Below are positions 1-20,981 of a stretch of DNA of 64,000 bases, in pieces. Below the pieces are notes generated by a model. It did no database searches, had not been told where the DNA came from, and saw nothing but the letters and a program-made list of their open reading frames with translations. A program made the translations under genes and the position numbers. The DNA comes from Terriglobia bacterium (GTDB lineage: Bacteria > Acidobacteriota > Terriglobia > Versatilivoradales > Versatilivoraceae): the NCBI GenBank assembly GCA_041476565.1, contig JBGOTQ010000001.1, positions 6,280 to 70,279 on the forward strand. The letters run 5' to 3'. Each line of letters opens with the position of its first letter. Within the stretch, counting starts at the first letter, position 1.

Positions 1-249
1 TCAGCCCATGTAGTAGATGAAGGCTTGGGAACTTAGCCCGAACTTCTCACCACCAAGTCACTTAGACACAAAGAAGTTAGCGCAGAAATCCTACCTGTAG
101 AGACTTGCCGGTGATATTAGCATGAGCCATTCAATTCGGGCTGAAAATTACCGACAAGATCGGGGATTCAGATGGCCTTGATTAATCTGAACCTTCGGGC
201 ATGTCTTGCTGTCTTGGTGTCTTGGCGCCTCGGTGACGAGATATGCAAG

Positions 250-1899
250 CTAAGGGTACCGTCTGCCCAGAATCAGATTGGGCAGTCCCATTTGGAATCG
301 AATCTTGTCCAGGGTCCGTGCTGCTTTCATGGGCTCAGGAATGTCAAACTCCCAAAGATTGCAGGGTGAGGCGTTGACACCCGATACGGCGAGAATCGCG
401 TTCGTGGCCCGCCGGGCGGCTTCGTTGGCTCCTTCCATCGTAGCGAGGTCCGTGTAGGTTCGAACATAATCAGAAGCAAGAAAGAGATTCTGGATTTCGG
501 TGTGTGCCTCGGGGCGGAAGGCGAGCGAGCCCGCATGGTTAATGAGCAGCGGTTCGAGGTTCGTGATACCTGTCGGGTTCGGCAGCAGGATATCCGGATC
601 AAGGAACCAATCGACCAGATTGTCGTCCTTGATCTGTTCGAGGCCTCCGACGTTCAGTGCCGCTTTCAACTGCGCCCACACTTCGTTCTTGACCTCTTCG
701 CGAGAAGCACACTGAATGGCCGGTTTGCCGTTGAAATTGCCTGCTGCGGTCCAGTTGGAAACGTCCACTGAAAGGATGCCGCCTATCTGGCCGTTGCCGT
801 AGTTCGAGAGGTCATAGGAATTCCAAAACTGCCGCTGCGAAATGGACGTCAGTGCCCAGTTAGAGTCCAAATAGATGGCGTGGCCGTCCGTCAAGGGTTC
901 GTCTGTCTTCAAGTAAAACTGTATACCGTTCATCCATTCTGTTCTTAACTTCTTCAGCATCGAAAGGGAGGGAGCCTCTCTGCTTAGATCGTCTGTAACC
1001 AGTTCCTGCATGATTTCCACGGGCATCGCGGCTACATAAAAGTCAGCAGAGATCTCGGACGGTTGCCCCGCCCGATCAATTGTGACGCTGCGCAGCCTGT
1101 TGCCGTCAAGGTTCAATGAACGGATCGCTGTGTTCGCTTCCATCCGGGCACCAAGACGCGAGGTGAGATGAGTGCGCCATGGATCGATCCAGACATCGTT
1201 GGTGGGTCCCTTTAGGAGACGATCGAATGCCCGCCCCGGGACAAGAATGCCATAGAAAAGTTGGAGCAGAATGCGCCCTATGGTACGCGTGCTCCCCTCT
1301 TCGGCACGCATCGCAACGAGCGATCTTGTTTGGCCTTGTCCCAAGTATTTCTGGTAGTTCTCGGATTTTGTCTTGGCTTCGATGAAGTCCCAGAACGGTG
1401 TCGGCTCGAACTCCTGGAGGTAACGTTCTTCGCAACTGGTTGCCAGCCCCATCATCTTCTTGACAAAAAATATGACTTCCTCGGAAGGAATATCCAGGTG
1501 GCTGAAAAGCAAAAGAAGAGCGGTTTCCAGATCATCGGGTGTCTCGGGGAAACGGCCCGCTAAAACAACTTCGGGCTTGCCGGCGCGAGCCAGCAGAATA
1601 CGCGTTGCAGTGGTGAGGTTGTCGTAGCAAGTGCCGCCGTGAGGACCGAACGGAATCCGTTTCATCGTGTCGGTGACATGCTTGTAGAAGCCGGGGAAAA
1701 ACCGGAAGCCATGTTCGCCGGGCAAGTCAATCCGCCCGTCGGTACCGGTGCCTGGAATCGGGATACTCCGGGCTTTCCCGCCGAAGGTGCCGCGTCGCTC
1801 GTAGACCGTAACATGAAACTCTCGTTCCGCCAGTTCATGTGCGGCACTTAGGCCTGCTACACCACCCCCTAACACAGCAACAGTGGGCATTGTCGGCAT
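250..1899 (-). CDS. FAD-dependent oxidoreductase (amine oxidase / phytoene desaturase-like Rossmann flavoprotein)
   Basis: The N-terminus VAVLGGGVAGLSAAHEL...VTVYERRGTFGGKARS is a classic GxGxxG FAD-binding betaalphabeta fold plus the GG(K/R) motif of amine-oxidase/CrtI-like enzymes. The 549-aa ORF is uninterrupted. It is transcribed divergently from the GMC oxidase gene. Confidence 0.7.
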   Translation of the reverse strand: MPTMPTVAVLGGGVAGLSAAHELAEREFHVTVYERRGTFGGKARSIPIPGTGTDGRIDLPGEHGFRFFPGFYKHVTDTMKRIPFGPHGGTCYDNLTTATRILLARAGKPEVVLAGRFPETPDDLETALLLLFSHLDIPSEEVIFFVKKMMGLATSCEERYLQEFEPTPFWDFIEAKTKSENYQKYLGQGQTRSLVAMRAEEGSTRTIGRILLQLFYGILVPGRAFDRLLKGPTNDVWIDPWRTHLTSRLGARMEANTAIRSLNLDGNRLRSVTIDRAGQPSEISADFYVAAMPVEIMQELVTDDLSREAPSLSMLKKLRTEWMNGIQFYLKTDEPLTDGHAIYLDSNWALTSISQRQFWNSYDLSNYGNGQIGGILSVDVSNWTAAGNFNGKPAIQCASREEVKNEVWAQLKAALNVGGLEQIKDDNLVDWFLDPDILLPNPTGITNLEPLLINHAGSLAFRPEAHTEIQNLFLASDYVRTYTDLATMEGANEAARRATNAILAVSGVNASPCNLWEFDIPEPMKAARTLDKIRFQMGLPNLILGRRYP

Positions 1900-2235
1900 A
1901 GATTCTTTTCCCTTCCGCTATCTGCTCAGGCTTACATTCCCGGCCTCGCGACGAACCTCCTGATTCCCTGCATTTCTAACCAGGGGAGCACGGTGAAAGC
2001 CGAAACAGCTTTCCCAGGACAGAGTGGCAGGTTTCGTTCGTTCGGAAATTGGATGAAGTGTAACACGTTTCCCCACTACCACATTTCCTTTTTTGAAAGG
2101 CGTTAGGCCCATTTGTGATCCGGTCTCCCCTGAGTCGAGGGGAGTTCATGCTTGACAAGCGGACATACATAGTGGGACTGTTAAGCCAAATTCTCTGGTT
2201 AAAACTGAGTTGTATCCGGGATCGGCCAAAGCAGA

Positions 2236-5200
2236 GTGTCGAAGGAGCGGGGTTCATTTAATGGCATGCTCGCTCTGGATGCTCCTATTCTCTTTGGCTC
2301 TGGTCTCGTGGTTACAACTGCAGTTGTGTTGCAGGCTTGCACTCTGGCACTGATTGGAGTCAATTTATTCGGCGGAGGAACTGGAATGCTTTCAAAACCC
2401 TGGGAGGAAAGAAAGACAGACTATGATTTCATCGTTGTGGGTTCCGGTTATGGCGGAGCCATTACAGCGGCTCGGATTGCCACAGCTGCCCTGATTCCTA
2501 AACCGACTCTGTGCATTCTCGAACGTGGAAATGAATGGCCTATCGGGACTTTCCCGGATTCGCTGGAGGAAGTGTTGCCTGCCACGCGGAATGACCTGAA
2601 CCCTCTGGGACTATACGAATTATTGAACTTTAGAGATATCTCCGTGATCAAGGGGTCGGGGCTGGGTGGAACCTCGCTAATCAATGCCAACGTCGCCATC
2701 GTCCCAGACCGCGATATCTTTCAGCGGGCTGGATGGCCGAGGACCCTCAGCTACGAGGCAATGCAAGCCTATTACGACAGGGCCCGGGCAACTTTAGCCG
2801 CAACCCCGCATCCACGCGCACTGGCCTTGGCCAAGGTGCAGGCTCTGGACAAGCGCGCCCAGCAGTTGGGCAGTCGAGCAGAGCCATTGACCCTGGCTGT
2901 GAACTTCTCCATTGATGGGCCCAACCCGTATGGAGTCGGCCAAAAGCCTTGCACCGACTGCGGGGATTGCGTGACCGGCTGTAATGTTGGGGCCAAGAAT
3001 ACCCTTTACATGAATTATTTGCCAATGGCCAGAAATGCCGGTGCTGAGATCTTCATCCAAACCAGAGTGGAATGGATTGAAAAGCTGGCTGGTGGAGGTT
3101 GGAGAGTCCACGGCCAGCACCAGCAGGGCCTCGGGAGTGAACCCTTCACGATCGATGCGCGACATGTGATCCTTGCGGCCGGTTCACTCAACTCCACAGA
3201 GATCCTTCTCCGCTCCGAAATGCATGGCTTGCGCGTCTCGCCGGAGCTGGGCAGAGGTTTTGGGGGTAATGGGGACTTCTTCGGACTCGCTTACAACGGA
3301 AACTATCAAACCGATGTTCTGGGTTACGGAACCAAACATTCCGTTCAGCCTGGCGACTCGCACCCCCCAGGGCCCTCGATTGTCGGCTTGATCCGATACA
3401 ACTCAAACCTTCCATTAGAGCAGAGGATTTCCGTTGAAGATTTTTCCTTTCCTAGTGCCTACGTGCTAGGCGCCAAGATGGCATTTGCTGCCCTGCACGG
3501 GGAGGACACTGACGTTGGCGATGAAGCCGCGAAGCGGCAACGCATTTTTGCTGACTTCAACCCCTTGCGGACATATTTCCCCGATGGGGCCTTGAATCAC
3601 ACCATGCTGTACCTGGTCATGGGGCAAGACGACGCTCGAGGAACCATGGTGCTTGAGACTCCCTGGAACGACCCGGAAGGGCAGCTGAGGATTGACTGGG
3701 ACGAAGCCGGGCAGCAGGTCGTATTTACGCGAATGAATGAGGAATTGCGCCGGCATGCTTGTGCGCTGGGAGCTAGCTTCATATCTAATCCAACCTGGAA
3801 TATATTTCGCACCCGTCACCTGATTACCGCCCATCCGCTGGGCGGGTGCCCGATAGGGGAAGATTATCTCCATGGGGCGGTCGATGAATTTGGCCGCGTT
3901 TTTTCCGGGGATGGCAGTGTTCATGAAGGGTTGTTTGTCTCTGACGGGGCGCTGATTCGCTCGGCCCTGGGCGTCAATCCTTTCCTCACGATCTCTGCTC
4001 TGGCCGAATGGATCGCCGAACGGAAAGTCCGTCAACTCCAAGGAGACCCCTATCCTGAACCAAATGCGGCAGTCAGTTTTTCAGTCATCGATCCCATGGA
4101 GGTTATCAACCTGCACGATGCGGAGTTGGACCTGTTATTCCAGCGTTGTCCCTCGATGGGAATCGATGAGCTCATCAATACCGGTCAGCGCCGGATCGAT
4201 ATTGCCAATCGACGCATTTTCAACGACAGCTATTGGAAAGGCTTTCTCCCCAAAGGCCTCATCCTGGGCGAACTGGCGGATGGCTTGTTCACGGGCTACA
4301 ACAAAAAGTTCTGGCGGGAAAGAGATAAAGTCTCAGGTGCCACGCTCTACGTCGACAACCGCATCCCGCTAAACCATGCGCTTGAGGAGGTAGTCCTCGA
4401 AGAAAGGACGAACGATCTGGATCCTGGGCGCTACATTCTGGTCAGGTACACTGACCCGCCCTTCGACATCTTCTACGACATGCTGAAGATCGTAAACGAG
4501 GGGATGATCATTTTCCGTGGATATACCGGCGAATATCCGAACGGTCATCGAAGCTTCGACGGGGTTGGGGTCCGAAGTTACGGGTTCGACCAGATGACGG
4601 TGGAAGACCACCGTGACTTGTTTCAGAACGGAACAATGCCTCAGAAACAAGATCTGCAGGGCATCTGGCAGTTGGACATCATTGCCAACGTCCGTCACAC
4701 ACGCCGCATTGGATGGATTCAGTTTGATCTCAAACCGGATGGCCGACTGGAGAGCCGATATCAGTTGCTGGGACTTTTGGAGGGGCTCTTCATCCCACAG
4801 CCTATCCAGGAGCATTTTCAAATGCCGGACTTCACGACCTTCGGTGACGAAATCCGCAAAGTCGATGAGAAATTGCTGGTTGGCAGGTTCATGACGCACT
4901 TGCCATCGGAAGTCCTGGCTATATTGGGGGGCCAGTCCCTCGGTATCTTCCAACCTGAACCCAATTCTGATCAGTTTGGTTTCTATTACATCCTCTCTCC
5001 CGTTGATCAGAGCGTTCTGCCGACAAATGCGCTACTGCAGCCTTTCTTAGATGTGCAACTGCCCGACGGGCTTGGGATGACTTTCGACGAGCAGATGGTG
5101 GGTTGGTTCTTCGAAGGACTTTCCACTTCTGCTGAAGGACGGGCAGGAGATATCGGCATGGCTCATCTCATCCCGGCCTCGGGTGATCCGCAAGGTGGAG

Positions 5201-5763
5201 TGGCCTGCAGTTTCCAGGTGCGGATGACGATCCGCGATTTAAACGAATTCATTGACGGTGTAGAGCACGAAGCAGGAATGCAGGGAACGATTGCGTTTGG
5301 CCGGTTCCTGGGAGAGGAATCGGTTACCTACACCCTCGACTCCCAGAAGAGTCTGTTTAACTATCTGCGAGTCAACGCGGCGACCGGTGAGGCCGAAATG
5401 CGTTACCACCTTGTGTTCCAGACCAAGAGTAACCGGAGTTTTGTATTTGAAGGCCGCAAGTACATGCAGAAAGACGAGAGCAGCGGCATTCGGGCCATGC
5501 AAGAGGTCCTTGAGGACTACACCACGCTGTTCTGCCATGTTTACGAATGCAGCGTCGACAATTCTCTAAAAGAAGTCGGCATCGCCTACCTGAAATTCCG
5601 GACCTTTGAAGACCTGGCAGCCTTAGGCAGTTTGACGGACTTCCTCCGTTCTTTCAAAGTGACAGGCTCGAGCGATCCGTTACTTCAGCTATCAGGACAA
5701 ATGCGCTTTTTGGCCTTTACCGGCCAATTTGTCCAGAGGGAGTACGATCCTCTTGGCTGGTGA
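2236..5763 (+). CDS. GMC-family flavoprotein, cholesterol oxidase (class I)-like N-terminal ~610 aa fused to a ~565-aa C-terminal region of unknown function
   Basis: DYDFIVVGSGYGGAITAARIA (FAD-binding), GSGLGGTSLINANVA, AAGSLNSTEILLRS and the C-terminal HPLGGCPIG...GLFVSDGALIRSALGVNPFLTISALAEW are the hallmark motifs of Streptomyces-type GMC cholesterol oxidases. There is an N-terminal hydrophobic segment (signal or anchor). The ORF then continues in frame for ~565 more residues with no recognisable motif. The start could instead be an internal Met. Confidence 0.75.
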   Translation: MSKERGSFNGMLALDAPILFGSGLVVTTAVVLQACTLALIGVNLFGGGTGMLSKPWEERKTDYDFIVVGSGYGGAITAARIATAALIPKPTLCILERGNEWPIGTFPDSLEEVLPATRNDLNPLGLYELLNFRDISVIKGSGLGGTSLINANVAIVPDRDIFQRAGWPRTLSYEAMQAYYDRARATLAATPHPRALALAKVQALDKRAQQLGSRAEPLTLAVNFSIDGPNPYGVGQKPCTDCGDCVTGCNVGAKNTLYMNYLPMARNAGAEIFIQTRVEWIEKLAGGGWRVHGQHQQGLGSEPFTIDARHVILAAGSLNSTEILLRSEMHGLRVSPELGRGFGGNGDFFGLAYNGNYQTDVLGYGTKHSVQPGDSHPPGPSIVGLIRYNSNLPLEQRISVEDFSFPSAYVLGAKMAFAALHGEDTDVGDEAAKRQRIFADFNPLRTYFPDGALNHTMLYLVMGQDDARGTMVLETPWNDPEGQLRIDWDEAGQQVVFTRMNEELRRHACALGASFISNPTWNIFRTRHLITAHPLGGCPIGEDYLHGAVDEFGRVFSGDGSVHEGLFVSDGALIRSALGVNPFLTISALAEWIAERKVRQLQGDPYPEPNAAVSFSVIDPMEVINLHDAELDLLFQRCPSMGIDELINTGQRRIDIANRRIFNDSYWKGFLPKGLILGELADGLFTGYNKKFWRERDKVSGATLYVDNRIPLNHALEEVVLEERTNDLDPGRYILVRYTDPPFDIFYDMLKIVNEGMIIFRGYTGEYPNGHRSFDGVGVRSYGFDQMTVEDHRDLFQNGTMPQKQDLQGIWQLDIIANVRHTRRIGWIQFDLKPDGRLESRYQLLGLLEGLFIPQPIQEHFQMPDFTTFGDEIRKVDEKLLVGRFMTHLPSEVLAILGGQSLGIFQPEPNSDQFGFYYILSPVDQSVLPTNALLQPFLDVQLPDGLGMTFDEQMVGWFFEGLSTSAEGRAGDIGMAHLIPASGDPQGGVACSFQVRMTIRDLNEFIDGVEHEAGMQGTIAFGRFLGEESVTYTLDSQKSLFNYLRVNAATGEAEMRYHLVFQTKSNRSFVFEGRKYMQKDESSGIRAMQEVLEDYTTLFCHVYECSVDNSLKEVGIAYLKFRTFEDLAALGSLTDFLRSFKVTGSSDPLLQLSGQMRFLAFTGQFVQREYDPLGW

Positions 5764-5872
5764 GTCGCTAGACTAGTGTAAGTTGGGTTGTCGTTGAGGG
5801 CTGGTTTGCTTCGGCAGTTGGGAGACCCTGCCTTGGCTTCAGGTTATCACGCTGGCTGTTGCCTGCTTAGCC

Positions 5873-6229
5873 TTAGGTGTTAGACCCAACCCCTTTGCCG
5901 GGACTAGGACTAAGAGTTTGCCTCGCCTTGTGACCTCCCTTCACATATTCTCGAAAGGTCCTGCCGGTCTTCTGCTGAAACATGGCTGCCAGCGAAGGGA
6001 CTTCACCCACGGGTTCGTCGAGTTCCACTTTCTCGATCCGGTAAAGAGGGAAGAAGATTGTTGCGAGCCCTATGGGACATTGCCCGCTGAGTTGATTGAG
6101 CCACTCATCAAAGGTACTGAGATCAACACCGCGGATTGTGACACCGGCTGAATTCAGCTCTACCATCTGCCCCCAGAACTTCTCTCGAGGTGTGTGTAGG
6201 CTGACGACGACTGTCGCGTCGCGTTTCAT
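5873..6229 (-). CDS. hypothetical protein (118 aa), probably co-transcribed with the downstream symporter
   Basis: This intact ORF lies 12 nt after the stop of the co-oriented symporter gene. It has no recognisable motifs and does not look like a membrane protein. Confidence 0.35.
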   Translation of the reverse strand: MKRDATVVVSLHTPREKFWGQMVELNSAGVTIRGVDLSTFDEWLNQLSGQCPIGLATIFFPLYRIEKVELDEPVGEVPSLAAMFQQKTGRTFREYVKGGHKARQTLSPSPGKGVGSNT

Positions 6230-6241
6230 GTGGGCCCCTTG

Positions 6242-7705
6242 TCAGGCTCTTGAAACAAGCGCACTGGTCCCCCCAGCCACCAAGGTCAGCAGGCAACCCA
6301 TCAGCGTATGCCAGGTGAAATCGATGGGAGTGAAGGCCATGACGATGATCATGCCCGCCAACCCAAAAGTCAAGCCGACATAGGCGTCTTTCTGATCGGC
6401 CCTTCTGAAAAAGAGCCCCAAGAAGAAAGTACCCAACATGCCACCATACGGGACGGCGGCAATCTTGAGCCCCAATTCAACAACGGGACTTCGGACACCC
6501 CGGAACAGCATGGCTGTGGCTATCAGGAGCACTCCCCAAAAAACTGTAAAGAGCCGGGAAATGGTCACCTCTCGTCGCGAGGACAGCGAAAGGCCAGGGA
6601 ACAGCGTTTTGAAGAGGTCCAGATAGGTTGAAGAAGCGAGTGCACTGATGGAAGAGGAGAGTGTTCCCATTGCAGATGCCAGGACTCCGGCGACCACCAG
6701 CCCGGAGACTCCGCTGGGCAGACTCTCTATGATGAACTTGGGGAAAATCTCGTCTGACGAATTCAGTCCAAGACGAGGGAAGGGGACTCCCCTGTAGAAT
6801 GCGAACAGACAAAGTCCCAGCAGGAGGAAGAAGGCAAATTGCACCACAATCAAAGCGGCATCCAACATGAGGGCGCGCTGGCTGTCCCATCGGCTCTTGC
6901 ACCCCAGCAGGCGTTGCACCAACAGCTGGTCTGTCCCATGAGACGCCATGGTGAGGAAAGTTCCACCCAGCAGCCCTCCCAGCAGCGTGTAGGGGCTCGA
7001 AAAGAAATCCAGCCAGCCCTCCCCCCAATAGAAATTGATCACCTCGGCTTTGTTCACCCCAAGCCCTGTGGCAAAGTGGATCACGTCGTGCCACCCCTGC
7101 GGTAGCTGCCACACAATAATCAGCACGGAGATCCCAGCTCCCCCCAGGTAGATGAAAAGTTGTACGACATCCATCGCAACCACGGCCTTCAGTCCGCCCA
7201 CGCAGGTATAAAGCAGTGTAAACCCACCCACCATGAGAATGCAGGCAGGGTAATCGAGGCCGGTAATCAGGTGGATTGGAATGGCGGTAGCGAACAATCG
7301 GACGCTGGAGGCCAGCAAACGCGTGGAGATGAAGACCGAGGAAGTAAACCTCCTCAGTGAAACACCGAATCGGCGGCCGAGAAAGTCGTAGGCCGTCAAG
7401 AGTTCTCCCCGGTAATAGGCGGGGATGAAGAGCACGCTGACCAGCAAGCGCCCGAAGAGGTATCCGAAGGCCAGCTGCAGGAAGTGCAGGTTGCCTCGAT
7501 ATGCGAGACCCGGGACGCTAATGAAGGTCAAGCTGCTGGTCTCACTGGCAACAATGGAGAAGCCGACCGCCCACCAGGAGAGCTGCTTACCACCCAGGAA
7601 AAAATCTTCCGGGGTCCGCTGCCGCCCGCCAACGAAGATCCCGGCCAGAGTGACCCCTGACAAGTAAGCCGCAACCACTGCATAATCCAGCCAGGTAAAG
7701 CCCAT
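6242..7705 (-). CDS. sodium:solute symporter family (SSF) transporter
   Basis: A polytopic membrane protein. Its N-terminus DYAVVAAYLSGVTLAGIFVGGRQRTPEDFFLGGKQLSWWAVGFSIVASETSSLTFISVPGLAY matches the conserved SSF (PutP/SglT-like) N-terminal region. Confidence 0.8.
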   Translation of the reverse strand: MGFTWLDYAVVAAYLSGVTLAGIFVGGRQRTPEDFFLGGKQLSWWAVGFSIVASETSSLTFISVPGLAYRGNLHFLQLAFGYLFGRLLVSVLFIPAYYRGELLTAYDFLGRRFGVSLRRFTSSVFISTRLLASSVRLFATAIPIHLITGLDYPACILMVGGFTLLYTCVGGLKAVVAMDVVQLFIYLGGAGISVLIIVWQLPQGWHDVIHFATGLGVNKAEVINFYWGEGWLDFFSSPYTLLGGLLGGTFLTMASHGTDQLLVQRLLGCKSRWDSQRALMLDAALIVVQFAFFLLLGLCLFAFYRGVPFPRLGLNSSDEIFPKFIIESLPSGVSGLVVAGVLASAMGTLSSSISALASSTYLDLFKTLFPGLSLSSRREVTISRLFTVFWGVLLIATAMLFRGVRSPVVELGLKIAAVPYGGMLGTFFLGLFFRRADQKDAYVGLTFGLAGMIIVMAFTPIDFTWHTLMGCLLTLVAGGTSALVSRA

Positions 7706-19325: not shown

Positions 19326-20981
19326 ATGGTTAACCGTAACGTCAATGCCGTGATTGTAGGCGCGGGGGCCGGCGGTGGCATTGTCGCGAAAGAACTGAGT
19401 GAGGCCGGCCTCACTGTTGTGCTGCTGGAACGCGGGACCTGGCCGAGTTTCGAAGCGCACGACCACGATGAATTAAGCGCCCAAACCTATGGCGTGCTGT
19501 GCAACGCCTTTGGGCCTGATGACGATCGATATCGTCGGGTGATTCAGGACACGACCGGTGTGCGGCATGTGGTGACCCCTATCGAGAGCGGTTATGGGAA
19601 TATTGCAGCCTGCGTTGGCTCGGGTACCGCCAGCTACGGCGCTATGGCCTGGCGGTTCTTGCCCCAAGATTTCCGCATGCGCTCGGTTTATGGTTTTCTG
19701 GAGGGCTCGACGCTCGATGACTGGCCTATTTCCTATGATGACCTGGAACCTTTCTACGAAAAGGCGGAATGGGAAATCGGTGTCAGTGGCAACGGCAGTG
19801 AAAATCCATTTGCAGCGCTGCGTCGGAGACCTTACCCCATGCCGCCTCATGGGTACACGCTGGCCGCCCGCAGGCTGGAGCCAGCAGCCAGGAGACTGGC
19901 GTTCCATCCCTTTCATATTCCCATGCTCCGCAACACCGTCCCTTTCGGGGGTCGGTCAGCTTGCATCCGCTGCCGCTACTGCAGCGGGTACGCCTGCGAG
20001 GTCAACGCCAAGAACGGGACACACAACACAGTGATCCCGGCGGCATTGGCCACCGGCAATTGTGAGCTGCGCATCCAGTGTGTGGCCAGCGAGGTGGGCC
20101 TCGACGAGCGCGGGCGGGCCAAAGGTATCCGCTACTTCGATCAAGACCGTCGAGAACGGTTTCAAAGTGCCGACTTGGTTGTGCTTTCCTGCTCCGCTAC
20201 CGAGACGGCCCGGCTCCTACTGAACTCTCGTTCCCGGCTCTTTCCATACGGCGCAGGCAATCGGTTCGACTGGGTAGGACGGAACCTTCAAGACCATGCT
20301 TACACCGGAGCTTGCGGTCTCTTCGGTGAAGAAGTATACGATGACGTGGGACCAGGAGCTTCCATTGCGATCTCTGATTTCAACCATGGGAACCCCGGAC
20401 TTAAGGGCGGCGGGATGCTCTGTAACCAGTTCATCAGCCACCCCTATGCCTTTACCCAAAAGCGGCCTCCGGGAACAGCTGCCTGGGGGTGGGCTCATAA
20501 GCTATTCCAGCGGGACTACTTCAAGCGGCACATCGGGATCCACGGCCCTGTGCAGGAGATGCCCATGGCTGAGTCCCGGGTTGAAGTGGACCCCGGGGTG
20601 AAGGACTACTGGGGGATTCCTGTGGCGCGGCTCTCGGGACATCGTCACCCGCATACGATTGAGATCTGCCGATACCTGGCTTCCAAGGCGGACGCTTGGC
20701 TAACAGAAGCGGGGGCGATTCAGACCTGGCTCATGATCCCAGGAGCAGGTCTGGGGGGAGGTCCGCATCAGGCTGGCACTTGCCGGATGGGGAAGGATCC
20801 GAAAACTTCTGTCACCAATCGTTATGGCCAGGTTCACGAGATTGATAATCTCTTCATTGCGGACGGAAGCCTGCATGTGACCAACGGCGGGTTTAATCCA
20901 GTTTTAACAATTATGGCGTTGGGCTACTGGGTCTCCAATTACCTAAGGCGCGAGTGGACAGGGACCCGATTTCACTCCTAA
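19326..20981 (+). CDS. GMC-family FAD oxidoreductase (choline/gluconate-2-dehydrogenase/glycoside-3-dehydrogenase-like)
   Basis: VIVGAGAGGGIVAKELSEAGLTVVLLERG is the FAD-binding motif. The C-terminal GMC region (HQAGTCRMG...IADGSLHVTNGGFNPVLTIMALG) is present. The protein is 551 aa. Confidence 0.8.
   Translation: MVNRNVNAVIVGAGAGGGIVAKELSEAGLTVVLLERGTWPSFEAHDHDELSAQTYGVLCNAFGPDDDRYRRVIQDTTGVRHVVTPIESGYGNIAACVGSGTASYGAMAWRFLPQDFRMRSVYGFLEGSTLDDWPISYDDLEPFYEKAEWEIGVSGNGSENPFAALRRRPYPMPPHGYTLAARRLEPAARRLAFHPFHIPMLRNTVPFGGRSACIRCRYCSGYACEVNAKNGTHNTVIPAALATGNCELRIQCVASEVGLDERGRAKGIRYFDQDRRERFQSADLVVLSCSATETARLLLNSRSRLFPYGAGNRFDWVGRNLQDHAYTGACGLFGEEVYDDVGPGASIAISDFNHGNPGLKGGGMLCNQFISHPYAFTQKRPPGTAAWGWAHKLFQRDYFKRHIGIHGPVQEMPMAESRVEVDPGVKDYWGIPVARLSGHRHPHTIEICRYLASKADAWLTEAGAIQTWLMIPGAGLGGGPHQAGTCRMGKDPKTSVTNRYGQVHEIDNLFIADGSLHVTNGGFNPVLTIMALGYWVSNYLRREWTGTRFHS

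Follow-up and report, generated by a model that had tools for sequence, protein, structure and literature searches.

A conserved, uncharacterised C-terminal extension of three predicted beta-barrels on a cholesterol-oxidase-like GMC flavoenzyme, most likely a ligand-handling accessory module

In the window, the stretch of 64,000 nucleotides from a Terriglobia bacterium (contig JBGOTQ010000001.1) that was analyzed here, a cholesterol-oxidase-like GMC flavoenzyme is followed in the same frame by a 566-residue tail (residues 610-1175 of the 1175-codon frame, nt 4063-5760). The tail represents a real uncharacterised domain family that most likely serves as an accessory module for ligand handling. 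It consists of two conserved, modular domain families, A-B and C, neither of which is named in any library searched. The bacterium is a soil acidobacterium; Acidobacteriota rank among the most abundant bacteria of soils, and the majority of their large multi-domain proteins lack annotation. The features of the gene and its surroundings are listed in Table 1.

Table 1. Positions of the fusion gene, its predicted parts and the adjacent genes in the window
Feature	Position (nt)	Strand	Basis or remark
Amine-oxidase-type flavoprotein gene	250-1899	divergent from fusion gene	Pfam/NCBIfam
Open frame	2236..5763	+	1175 codons if counted from GTG 2236
Gene for GMC-A-B-C fusion protein, 1125 aa from the most likely start	2386..5763	+	ORF, RBS-like GGAGGA, homolog starts
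GMC oxidoreductase domain, cholesterol-oxidase-like	2386..4062	+	Pfam, NCBIfam, PDB 1b4v matches
C-x2-C-x2-C-x3-C motif (CTDCGDCVTGC) inside GMC domain	2950..2982	+	conserved Cys; weak Fer4 matches
Short helical linker, GMC domain to barrel A (predicted)	4063..4173	+	module residues 1-37, AF2
Sub-domain A, beta-barrel then two helices (predicted)	4174..4656	+	module residues 38-198
Sub-domain B, second beta-barrel (predicted)	4657..5028	+	module residues 199-322, AF2 strands, subB HMM
Sub-domain C, 8-stranded up-and-down barrel and long C-terminal helix (predicted)	5050..5760	+	module residues 330-566
Gene for 118-aa protein	5873-6229	opposite to fusion gene	ORF
Sodium:solute symporter gene	6242-7705	opposite to fusion gene	Pfam/NCBIfam

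The frame of 1175 codons described in an earlier, sequence-only reading of this DNA does exist, but its product is probably shorter. Translation most likely begins at ATG 2386, which yields a protein of 1125 aa, because GGAGGA is located at 2374-2379, 6-7 nt upstream of this codon, because the L004 ortholog (approximately 84-85% identity) was called at 30..3407 from MLSKPWQ with exactly 1125 aa and a gap-free alignment, and because the full-length homologs P0090 and P0117 share this start. The 50 codons from GTG 2236 to ATG 2386 are probably untranslated. Neither a signal peptide nor a transmembrane segment was detected in the fusion protein read from ATG 2386, and promoter and terminator scans gave background levels only.

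As judged from its sequence, the N-terminal half belongs to the cholesterol-oxidase-like GMC enzymes, in agreement with the assignment made earlier for residues 1 to ~610. PF00732 (GMC_oxred_N) was matched at residues 65-329 with 60.7 bits (cut-off 23) and PF05199 (GMC_oxred_C) at residues 469-590 with 38.5 bits (cut-off 24.6), both in the 1175-codon count. The features that define the GMC superfamily were thus present, namely GxGxxG (VVGSGYGG, near the N-terminus of the domain) with PF00732 above its gathering score, and PF05199 with the His/Asn pair. Among solved structures, class-I cholesterol oxidases are the nearest (1b4v, E 1.2e-26), and the HPLGGC and GVNPF...TI.ALAE blocks align with theirs; the predicted catalytic residues, His483 in AHPLGGC and Asn531 in GVNPF (1125-aa numbering), both align to ChoA 1b4v. 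Membership in the ChoA/ChoB cholesterol oxidase equivalog (NCBIfam NF058674) was ruled out, as the score was 169.3 bits in two partial stretches against a curated whole-protein cut-off of 850 bits.

The four-cysteine motif within the GMC domain, Cys189/192/195/199 of the 1125-aa protein, possibly forms a putative Fe-S site. Its region gave weak Pfam matches to Fer4_9 and Fer4_7. The motif is kept in P0026, P0022, P0090, P0117 and P0184 and also occurs in the GMC domain of P0191, which is 21% identical, whereas it is missing from the Streptomyces cholesterol oxidase ChoA, which has EVIYGNNHG at the place of the four-cysteine insertion. The region aligns, with weak similarity (E 6.5e-4), to the 3Fe-4S-binding loop of the FAD-dependent dehydrogenase FAD-GDH (6a2u), the motif falling within the stretch that aligns to residues 204-299 of the chain. 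In BcGDH alpha, the 3Fe-4S cluster is bound in the loop Glu197-Asn229 by Cys212/218/222, and the FAD-GDH cluster relays electrons from FAD to a partner (PMC6719666). FAD-GDH is also built on a GMC scaffold, with its cysteines clustered in the loop that follows the FAD-binding half, but the spacing differs (C-x2-C-x2-C-x3-C in the window, CC-x4-C-x3-C in FAD-GDH). Fe-S dehydrogenases of the FAD-GDH type are characterised by companion genes for a small (hitchhiker) subunit and a multihaem cytochrome c subunit; the genes directly next to the fusion gene encode the amine-oxidase-type flavoprotein, the 118-aa protein and the symporter.

The tail gave no match to Pfam, NCBIfam or PDB sequences even at E<=10, apart from noise in Pfam/NCBIfam such as Sld7_C (E 0.07), and nothing was found for the tail, B or C among all PDB chains by phmmer and profile searches (E<=10). 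The earlier statements that the tail lacks a recognizable motif and that a GMC oxidase is fused here to an uncharacterised region were therefore borne out. The description as one large novel domain, on the other hand, did not hold, since the tail divides into two separable units, which together contain three small barrels whose fold class is very common. With confidence, the tail is predicted to be all-beta, as three calycin/avidin-type beta-barrels; in the models, the 8-10-stranded antiparallel up-and-down barrel characteristic of calycins was found. The matches in the Foldseek search, which covered the PDB libraries, were generic in fold, with 4-17% identity.

The predicted barrels are preceded by a linker with helices at module residues 11-14, 19-28 and 34-37 (pLDDT 65-92, AF2). 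In sub-domain A, the family motifs take a form specific to the lineage (GATLYVDNRIPLNHALEE; FDGVGVR). Sub-domain B, which always follows A, begins with an invariant G-x-W (columns G5 and W7 of alignment A2) and contains a DEIR...VG motif; its predicted strands lie within 200-314, where residues 240-254 form a disordered loop (AF2). Sub-domain C shows the motifs KYMQKD, DYTTL and LKFRTFE and many invariant polar residues, about a dozen (E14, H73, S101, N109, E116, Y119, K137, D156, T158, K182). Comparison by hhalign showed weak similarity between A and B (E 0.005) and no relation of C to either. In evolutionary terms, the tail comprises two units, A and B as a pair and barrel C on its own.

Either unit might instead be a second catalytic domain, such as an isomerase, cyclase or hydratase that acts on the GMC product, for which the allene oxide cyclase, PhnH-type and DynF-type barrels offer models. 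This reading is unlikely, because no enzyme family was matched at the sequence level and structural matches to enzymes scored no better than those to binders. In addition, the TSDTD and FTFPM motifs of A are replaced in the lineage of the window while purifying selection persists, and this makes a fixed catalytic site in that sub-domain less likely.

The extension is far beyond chance, as the frame stays open, is conserved in 203 genomes and is under purifying selection. The GMC domain and the tail lie in a single frame in approximately 70 of the 80 independent assemblies, and the L004 ortholog has the same 1125 codons as the window gene, with no indel and a dN/dS of 0.11 in the tail. The exact protein of the window was not found in the assembly index. 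The metagenome scan was run with a single protein, P0146, as the query. In a minority of relatives (L001/L040, L002, L003, L031, L059, L060 and L074), the two parts occur in different frames or as separate genes, as would be expected if a sequencing or assembly error had merged two genes into the long ORF, or if its tail were a decaying pseudogene. Such an artefact has a virtually negligible probability and was refuted by the single-frame assemblies, the intact ortholog and its low dN/dS; base composition is also even across the junction. The fusion is therefore conserved in related genomes, a check proposed in the sequence-only reading.

That reading had also asked whether the tail occurs alone or with other partners, and the A-B unit does both. 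It is repeatedly fused to SRPBCC/START-like lipid-binding domains, and free-standing A-B proteins make up at least 243 clusters in addition to the fusions. The tail is modular and tied to GMC enzymes by several independent routes, and the A-B unit is not exclusive to GMC enzymes. The proposal that free-standing A-B genes always lie beside a GMC gene was rejected, because most of them have no GMC neighbor, an observation that also speaks against ligand handling.

The adjacent genes lie where they had been reported, namely a second FAD oxidoreductase, which is of the amine oxidase type, and a small gene separated from the symporter gene by 12 nt, but this context is kept in no relative. Of 80 loci, one has the amine oxidase and none has the 118-aa gene, the symporter or HemL, and the synteny of L004 with the window stops at the borders of the fusion gene; the window neighbors were therefore rejected as conserved context. 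In the main clade, an ALO-type VAO flavoprotein recurs as a neighbor in 46 of 82 loci, and a Metallophos protein, a peptidase S8 and two large unknown proteins recur as well. All of these are absent from the window, and they gave no clue to a pathway. The search of a defence-system library returned no matches.

These data bear on a further alternative, in which the tail is a structural or docking device for oligomerisation, for association with the membrane or envelope, or for docking of a partner protein, whether an electron acceptor or another. It is doubtful, because the window gene has no conserved partner gene alongside, its product from ATG 2386 lacks a signal peptide and a transmembrane segment, the recurrent SRPBCC-A-B fusions suggest small-molecule biology, and the free-standing A-B proteins are abundant in heterogeneous gene contexts.

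Our tentative preference, at somewhat below an even chance, is that the tail is a non-catalytic accessory module whose ligand would be a small hydrophobic or amphipathic molecule, exchanged with the GMC flavoenzyme. The barrels would supply capture, solubilisation or gating of the substrate, and the tail would present the molecule to the flavoenzyme or take it from it. The GMC half would carry out the redox chemistry with FAD and the His/Asn pair, and electrons might leave by way of the four-cysteine, possibly Fe-S, site instead of being passed to O2. A role in substrate delivery or lipid binding, as suggested earlier, agrees with the three barrels and the SRPBCC/START-like fusions, and we infer ligand binding itself, the hydrophobicity of the ligand and its hand-over to the active site.

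Three further observations weigh against ligand handling. The fold matches are generic, and barrels of this class also occur as purely structural domains and in some enzymes. The invariant polar residues of C exceed the usual need of a passive lipid pocket. The GMC half falls outside the cholesterol oxidase equivalog, at 169 bits against 850.

A broader and decidedly improbable extension holds that A-B and C are two new small-molecule-handling barrel families which, with the four-cysteine dehydrogenase, form an unrecognised pathway of hydrophobic-metabolite oxidation, largely specific to Acidobacteriota, with C perhaps an enzyme. The compound oxidised would be a membrane lipid or other hydrophobic metabolite, and C may act on the product of the flavoenzyme as a new barrel enzyme instead of a passive binder.

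In summary, the analysis yields definitions of two new domains, a link to a redox enzyme that can be tested and a possible Fe-S variant among the cholesterol-oxidase-like enzymes. If the barrels deliver substrate, the protein would be a naturally occurring GMC oxidase with a fused carrier domain and could help in engineering oxidases for insoluble substrates; if they do not, they are simply another domain family of unknown function.

Compared with known systems, the two-domain GMC scaffold with GxGxxG, the HPLGGC His and the GVNPF Asn is common to the window protein, ChoA of Streptomyces (PDB 1b4v) and the Brevibacterium enzyme (1coy). ChoA ends at approximately 500-550 aa, has no tail and is secreted, whereas the window protein is tailed and has no signal peptide from ATG 2386.

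For the tail, the sole Pfam families recurring among the weak matches of family members were GXWXG (PF14231) and DUF4334 (PF14232), small proteins that are themselves uncharacterised. These matches, seen in few members (E 0.03-0.13, 15-23 residues), fall on FYDvFKv.n..LiGk of A and DEIR.vd...vGkw of B. Membership was not assigned, as the best scores of 13.8 bits for DUF4334 and 12.7 bits for GXWXG lie below the cut-off of 25, and hmmscan gave no match to either family for the window sequence itself. Literature searches on DUF4334/GXWXG, on GMC enzymes with a C-terminal extension and on GMC with lipocalin-like domains retrieved nothing relevant.

Among solved structures, Tcur_1030 of Thermomonospora curvata (PDB 4mve) is an uncharacterised barrel protein of 148 aa with just 15-17% identity; profile searches detected no sequence relation, no literature on it was found, and it gives no functional transfer. 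Avidin/streptavidin, lipocalins, FABP/CRABP and nitrobindin, which are calycin-type barrels of 8-10 strands, are 4-13% identical to the predicted barrels, with no family-specific motif or Pfam match of these families in the tail. Unlike these calycins, the window protein is predicted to carry three barrels in tandem joined to a flavoenzyme, and its sub-domain C to have helical inserts and, at the C-terminus, an additional long helix.

The single open frame of the fused gene is present as the sequence-only reading had described it. Translation most likely starts at ATG 2386, giving 1125 aa, because a Shine-Dalgarno sequence (GGAGGA) lies 6-7 nt upstream and the starts of relatives agree: the nearest ortholog, at locus L004 (85%), was called from MLSKPWQ with exactly 1125 aa, and the homologs P0090 and P0117 start at the same position. 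The 50 codons in front of this ATG are probably untranslated. The Pfam domains GMC_oxred_N (ORF residues 65-329) and GMC_oxred_C (469-590) scored above gathering, and the closest solved structures were class-I cholesterol oxidases (1b4v and relatives, E ~1e-26; 1coy, E 3e-23), with which HPLGGC and GVNPF...TI.ALAE aligned; both results agree with the cholesterol-oxidase-like GMC half proposed earlier. The NCBIfam cholesterol oxidase equivalog scored 169 bits with a cut-off of 850, so this half resembles a cholesterol oxidase without counting as one under that model. Both defining features of the GMC superfamily were tested and found in the N-terminal half, which is a member. The catalytic half is an intact GMC flavoenzyme, in which the FAD motif and the paired residues His483 and Asn531 are present.

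From about residue 600 onward, no match was obtained in Pfam, NCBIfam or all PDB chain sequences, even at E<=10, as expected from the motif-less extension that had been noticed. The tail alone found 128 relatives in a word-indexed collection. When 1.84 billion representatives were searched exhaustively with a profile, 541 matched at E<=1e-3 (126 at E<=1e-30), and among genomes sampled at one per species the tail was present in 203. The best 80 of these 203 were nearly all Acidobacteriota MAGs, including Terriglobia, Bryobacteraceae, Solibacteraceae, Ca. Solibacter and Ca. Sulfopaludibacter. The GMC part lay directly upstream of the tail in all 80 loci examined, and about 70 of the best 80 held a complete GMC domain and the tail in one open frame. 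A few loci split the two, as in L002 (a 555-aa GMC gene, a gap of 20 nt and a 541-aa tail gene) and L001 (genes overlapping by 53 nt). The L004 gene, the nearest relative (84% DNA identity, window 2359-5790 versus L004 3-3435), has the same 1125 codons without an indel. With the fusion conserved in this way in related genomes, the chance that the long ORF is an artefact is vanishingly small, and that explanation counts as excluded. Comparison of the window gene with that of L004 gave a dN/dS of 0.070 over the GMC half and 0.111 over the tail (barrel A, 0.105; B, 0.182; C, 0.086); the tail is functional and under constraint within the fused protein.

The AlphaFold2 model of the 566-residue tail, built on a 22-sequence alignment, was nearly all beta (mean pLDDT 80.3, pTM 0.65), and barrel C modelled alone reached a pLDDT of 86.7 and a pTM of 0.85. 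The tail is confidently predicted to form three beta-barrels of calycin/avidin type, all under constraint and arranged as two mobile units.

Features of the fused gene, its predicted tail and its surroundings (window positions unless stated otherwise)
Feature	Position	Strand	Remarks
Open frame of fused gene	2236..5763	+	1175 codons from GTG
Codons upstream of ATG 2386	2236-2385	+	50 codons; hydrophobic, transmembrane-like stretch
C-x2-C-x2-C-x3-C motif	2950-2982	+	CTDCGDCVTGC, within GMC domain; conserved; weak Fer4 matches
Barrel A motif swap	4336-4365	+	GITSDTDGRI to GATLYVDNRI (TSDTD to TLYVD)
Barrel A motif swap	4555-4575	+	FTFPMTR to FDGVGVR (FTFPM to FDGVG)
Short helical linker	module residues 1-37		AlphaFold2 model
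Barrel A	module residues ~38-198		two helices at end; AlphaFold2 model
Barrel B	module residues ~199-322		one disordered loop; AlphaFold2 model
Barrel C	module residues ~330-566		helical inserts, long C-terminal helix; AlphaFold2 model
Amine-oxidase/phytoene-desaturase-type flavoprotein	250-1899	-	divergent neighbour
118-aa protein	5873-6229	-	no match in Pfam, NCBIfam, PADLOC
Sodium:solute symporter	6242-7705	-	118-aa gene 12 nt downstream
Second GMC oxidoreductase	19326-20981	+	551 aa, ordinary length, no tail
Recurring main-clade neighbourhood	L001 72-16338		other examples: L018, L049, L057, L063

A Foldseek search of the PDB with the tail gave weak whole-chain matches alone, all to small calycin-type barrels: Tcur_1030 (4mve), nitrobindin, CRABP-II, DUF3598, lipocalin-like proteins and TbpB. 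The match to Tcur_1030 (probability 1.00, TM 0.58 on target) falls in the N-half of the tail and probably in barrel A, because the alignment, at 133 residues, is longer than the ordered part of B. Among weak Pfam matches, GXWXG and DUF4334 were the sole recurring families (15-23 residues, E 0.03-0.13, 12.7-13.8 bits where 25 is the cut-off), a tentative link at most; these matches fall on a motif that A and B have in common. The barrel B and C profiles had no match in PDB sequences. By sequence the tail fits no described family, and by structure it is one of a very common class of barrels.

Domain order among the homologous proteins was determined with purpose-built HMMs for A, B and C and Pfam scans. 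The window protein and P0122 are GMC-A-B-C, and the class of 1440-1500 codons (including P0001, P0003, P0121 and P0123) is GMC-A-B-C-A'-B'; this long form, with a second, diverged A'-B' after barrel C, was found in about one third of genomes (for example loci L008-L010, L013 and L018). GMC-A-B occurs in P0191 and P0216, with a GMC domain merely 21% identical to that of the window, and GMC-C in P0184 (55%). As to whether the tail exists alone or with other partners, its parts do: A-B stands alone in at least 243 clusters (~310-335 aa, every one labelled hypothetical), follows an SRPBCC/Polyketide_cyc2 domain in P0163 and P0446 and a transthyretin-like N-terminus in P0152, and C stands alone in P0250 (249 aa, metagenome). 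In all these combinations A and B occur as a pair, and C is a separate unit. The lipoprotein-type signal peptide of P0250 (…LAIVGCGG) suggests that barrel C also works outside the cytoplasm, without a GMC domain.

The two swapped motifs of barrel A are near-invariant elsewhere and replaced in the window and L004, and the free-standing A-B family (P0146, P0149) has the same variant. Barrel A of the window protein is as close to that family (49-50% identity) as it is to the fused clade (43-48%); for barrel B, the window protein clearly sides with the fused clade. By these comparisons, the window/L004 lineage would be either mosaic or basal.

The neighbours of the fused gene are present as first described, and none is kept beside its relatives: of 80 loci, one had the amine-oxidase-type gene again, and none had the 118-aa gene, the symporter or HemL. 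The 118-aa gene and the fused gene are convergent, with 109 nt between them, and no relative of the fused gene has the pair of the 118-aa gene and the symporter beside it. One other genome, L060, has a 59% homolog of the divergent flavoprotein at a distance of ~5 kb from its fused gene. The best NCBIfam match of the window's flavoprotein, the hopanoid enzyme HpnE, was rejected as far too weak (85 bits, cut-off 283). Synteny with L004 stops where the gene does on either side, and the genes around it are different, a BBE-type FAD_binding_4 flavoprotein gene lying downstream in L004; the fused gene appears to have been relocated or its surroundings rearranged. The main clade has an ALO-type VAO flavoprotein (~451 aa, same strand) in 46 of 82 loci and, less often, a Metallophos protein (15 loci), peptidase S8 (10 loci) and proteins of ~720 aa (24 loci) and 1100-1230 aa (14 loci) that matched nothing in Pfam, PDB or PADLOC; none of these five is in the window. 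The second GMC gene of the window is a distant relative of the fused one (32% identity over 74 residues). In 9 of 28 metagenome loci and in L112, a divergent GMC gene, ~29-31% identical to that of the window, lay just upstream of the free-standing A-B gene; others, with 5-6 kb of flank, had no GMC gene beside them. GMC enzymes are thus the dominant, not obligatory, partner of A-B, in fused, downstream-adjacent and divergent-adjacent arrangements and with at least three GMC lineages.

A-B and C are repeatedly found with GMC oxidoreductases, and A-B with SRPBCC domains. Cholesterol-oxidase-type enzymes act on poorly soluble substrates, and carrying hydrophobic ligands is a classical role of both the calycin and the SRPBCC fold. 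The most likely reading, at somewhat less than even odds, is that the barrels would hold a small hydrophobic or amphipathic ligand and either deliver it to the flavoenzyme or receive it from there. A rival of low probability, in which barrel C performs a second catalytic step, is supported by about a dozen invariant polar residues kept even at 27-36% identity and by the lowest dN/dS of the three barrels; the finding would gain interest if barrel C proved catalytic.

No source named a member other than as hypothetical protein or GMC oxidoreductase, and the literature search found no paper describing the GMC-tail architecture and no report on the uncharacterised Tcur_1030. What is new is a GMC flavoenzyme with two accessory domain families lacking prior definition, which a specialist would regard as a useful, hardly startling addition. 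It would be of greater interest if, within an enzyme of cholesterol-oxidase-like type, the four-cysteine site proved to work as an Fe-S relay. This motif is kept in every fused relative examined, even in the 21%-identical GMC of P0191, and the window enzyme may be a dehydrogenase with an Fe-S relay and not an O2-using oxidase. The cysteine motif is absent from Streptomyces cholesterol oxidase, and its stretch aligns weakly to the 3Fe-4S-binding loop in the FAD-glucose dehydrogenase of B. cepacia (PMC6719666).
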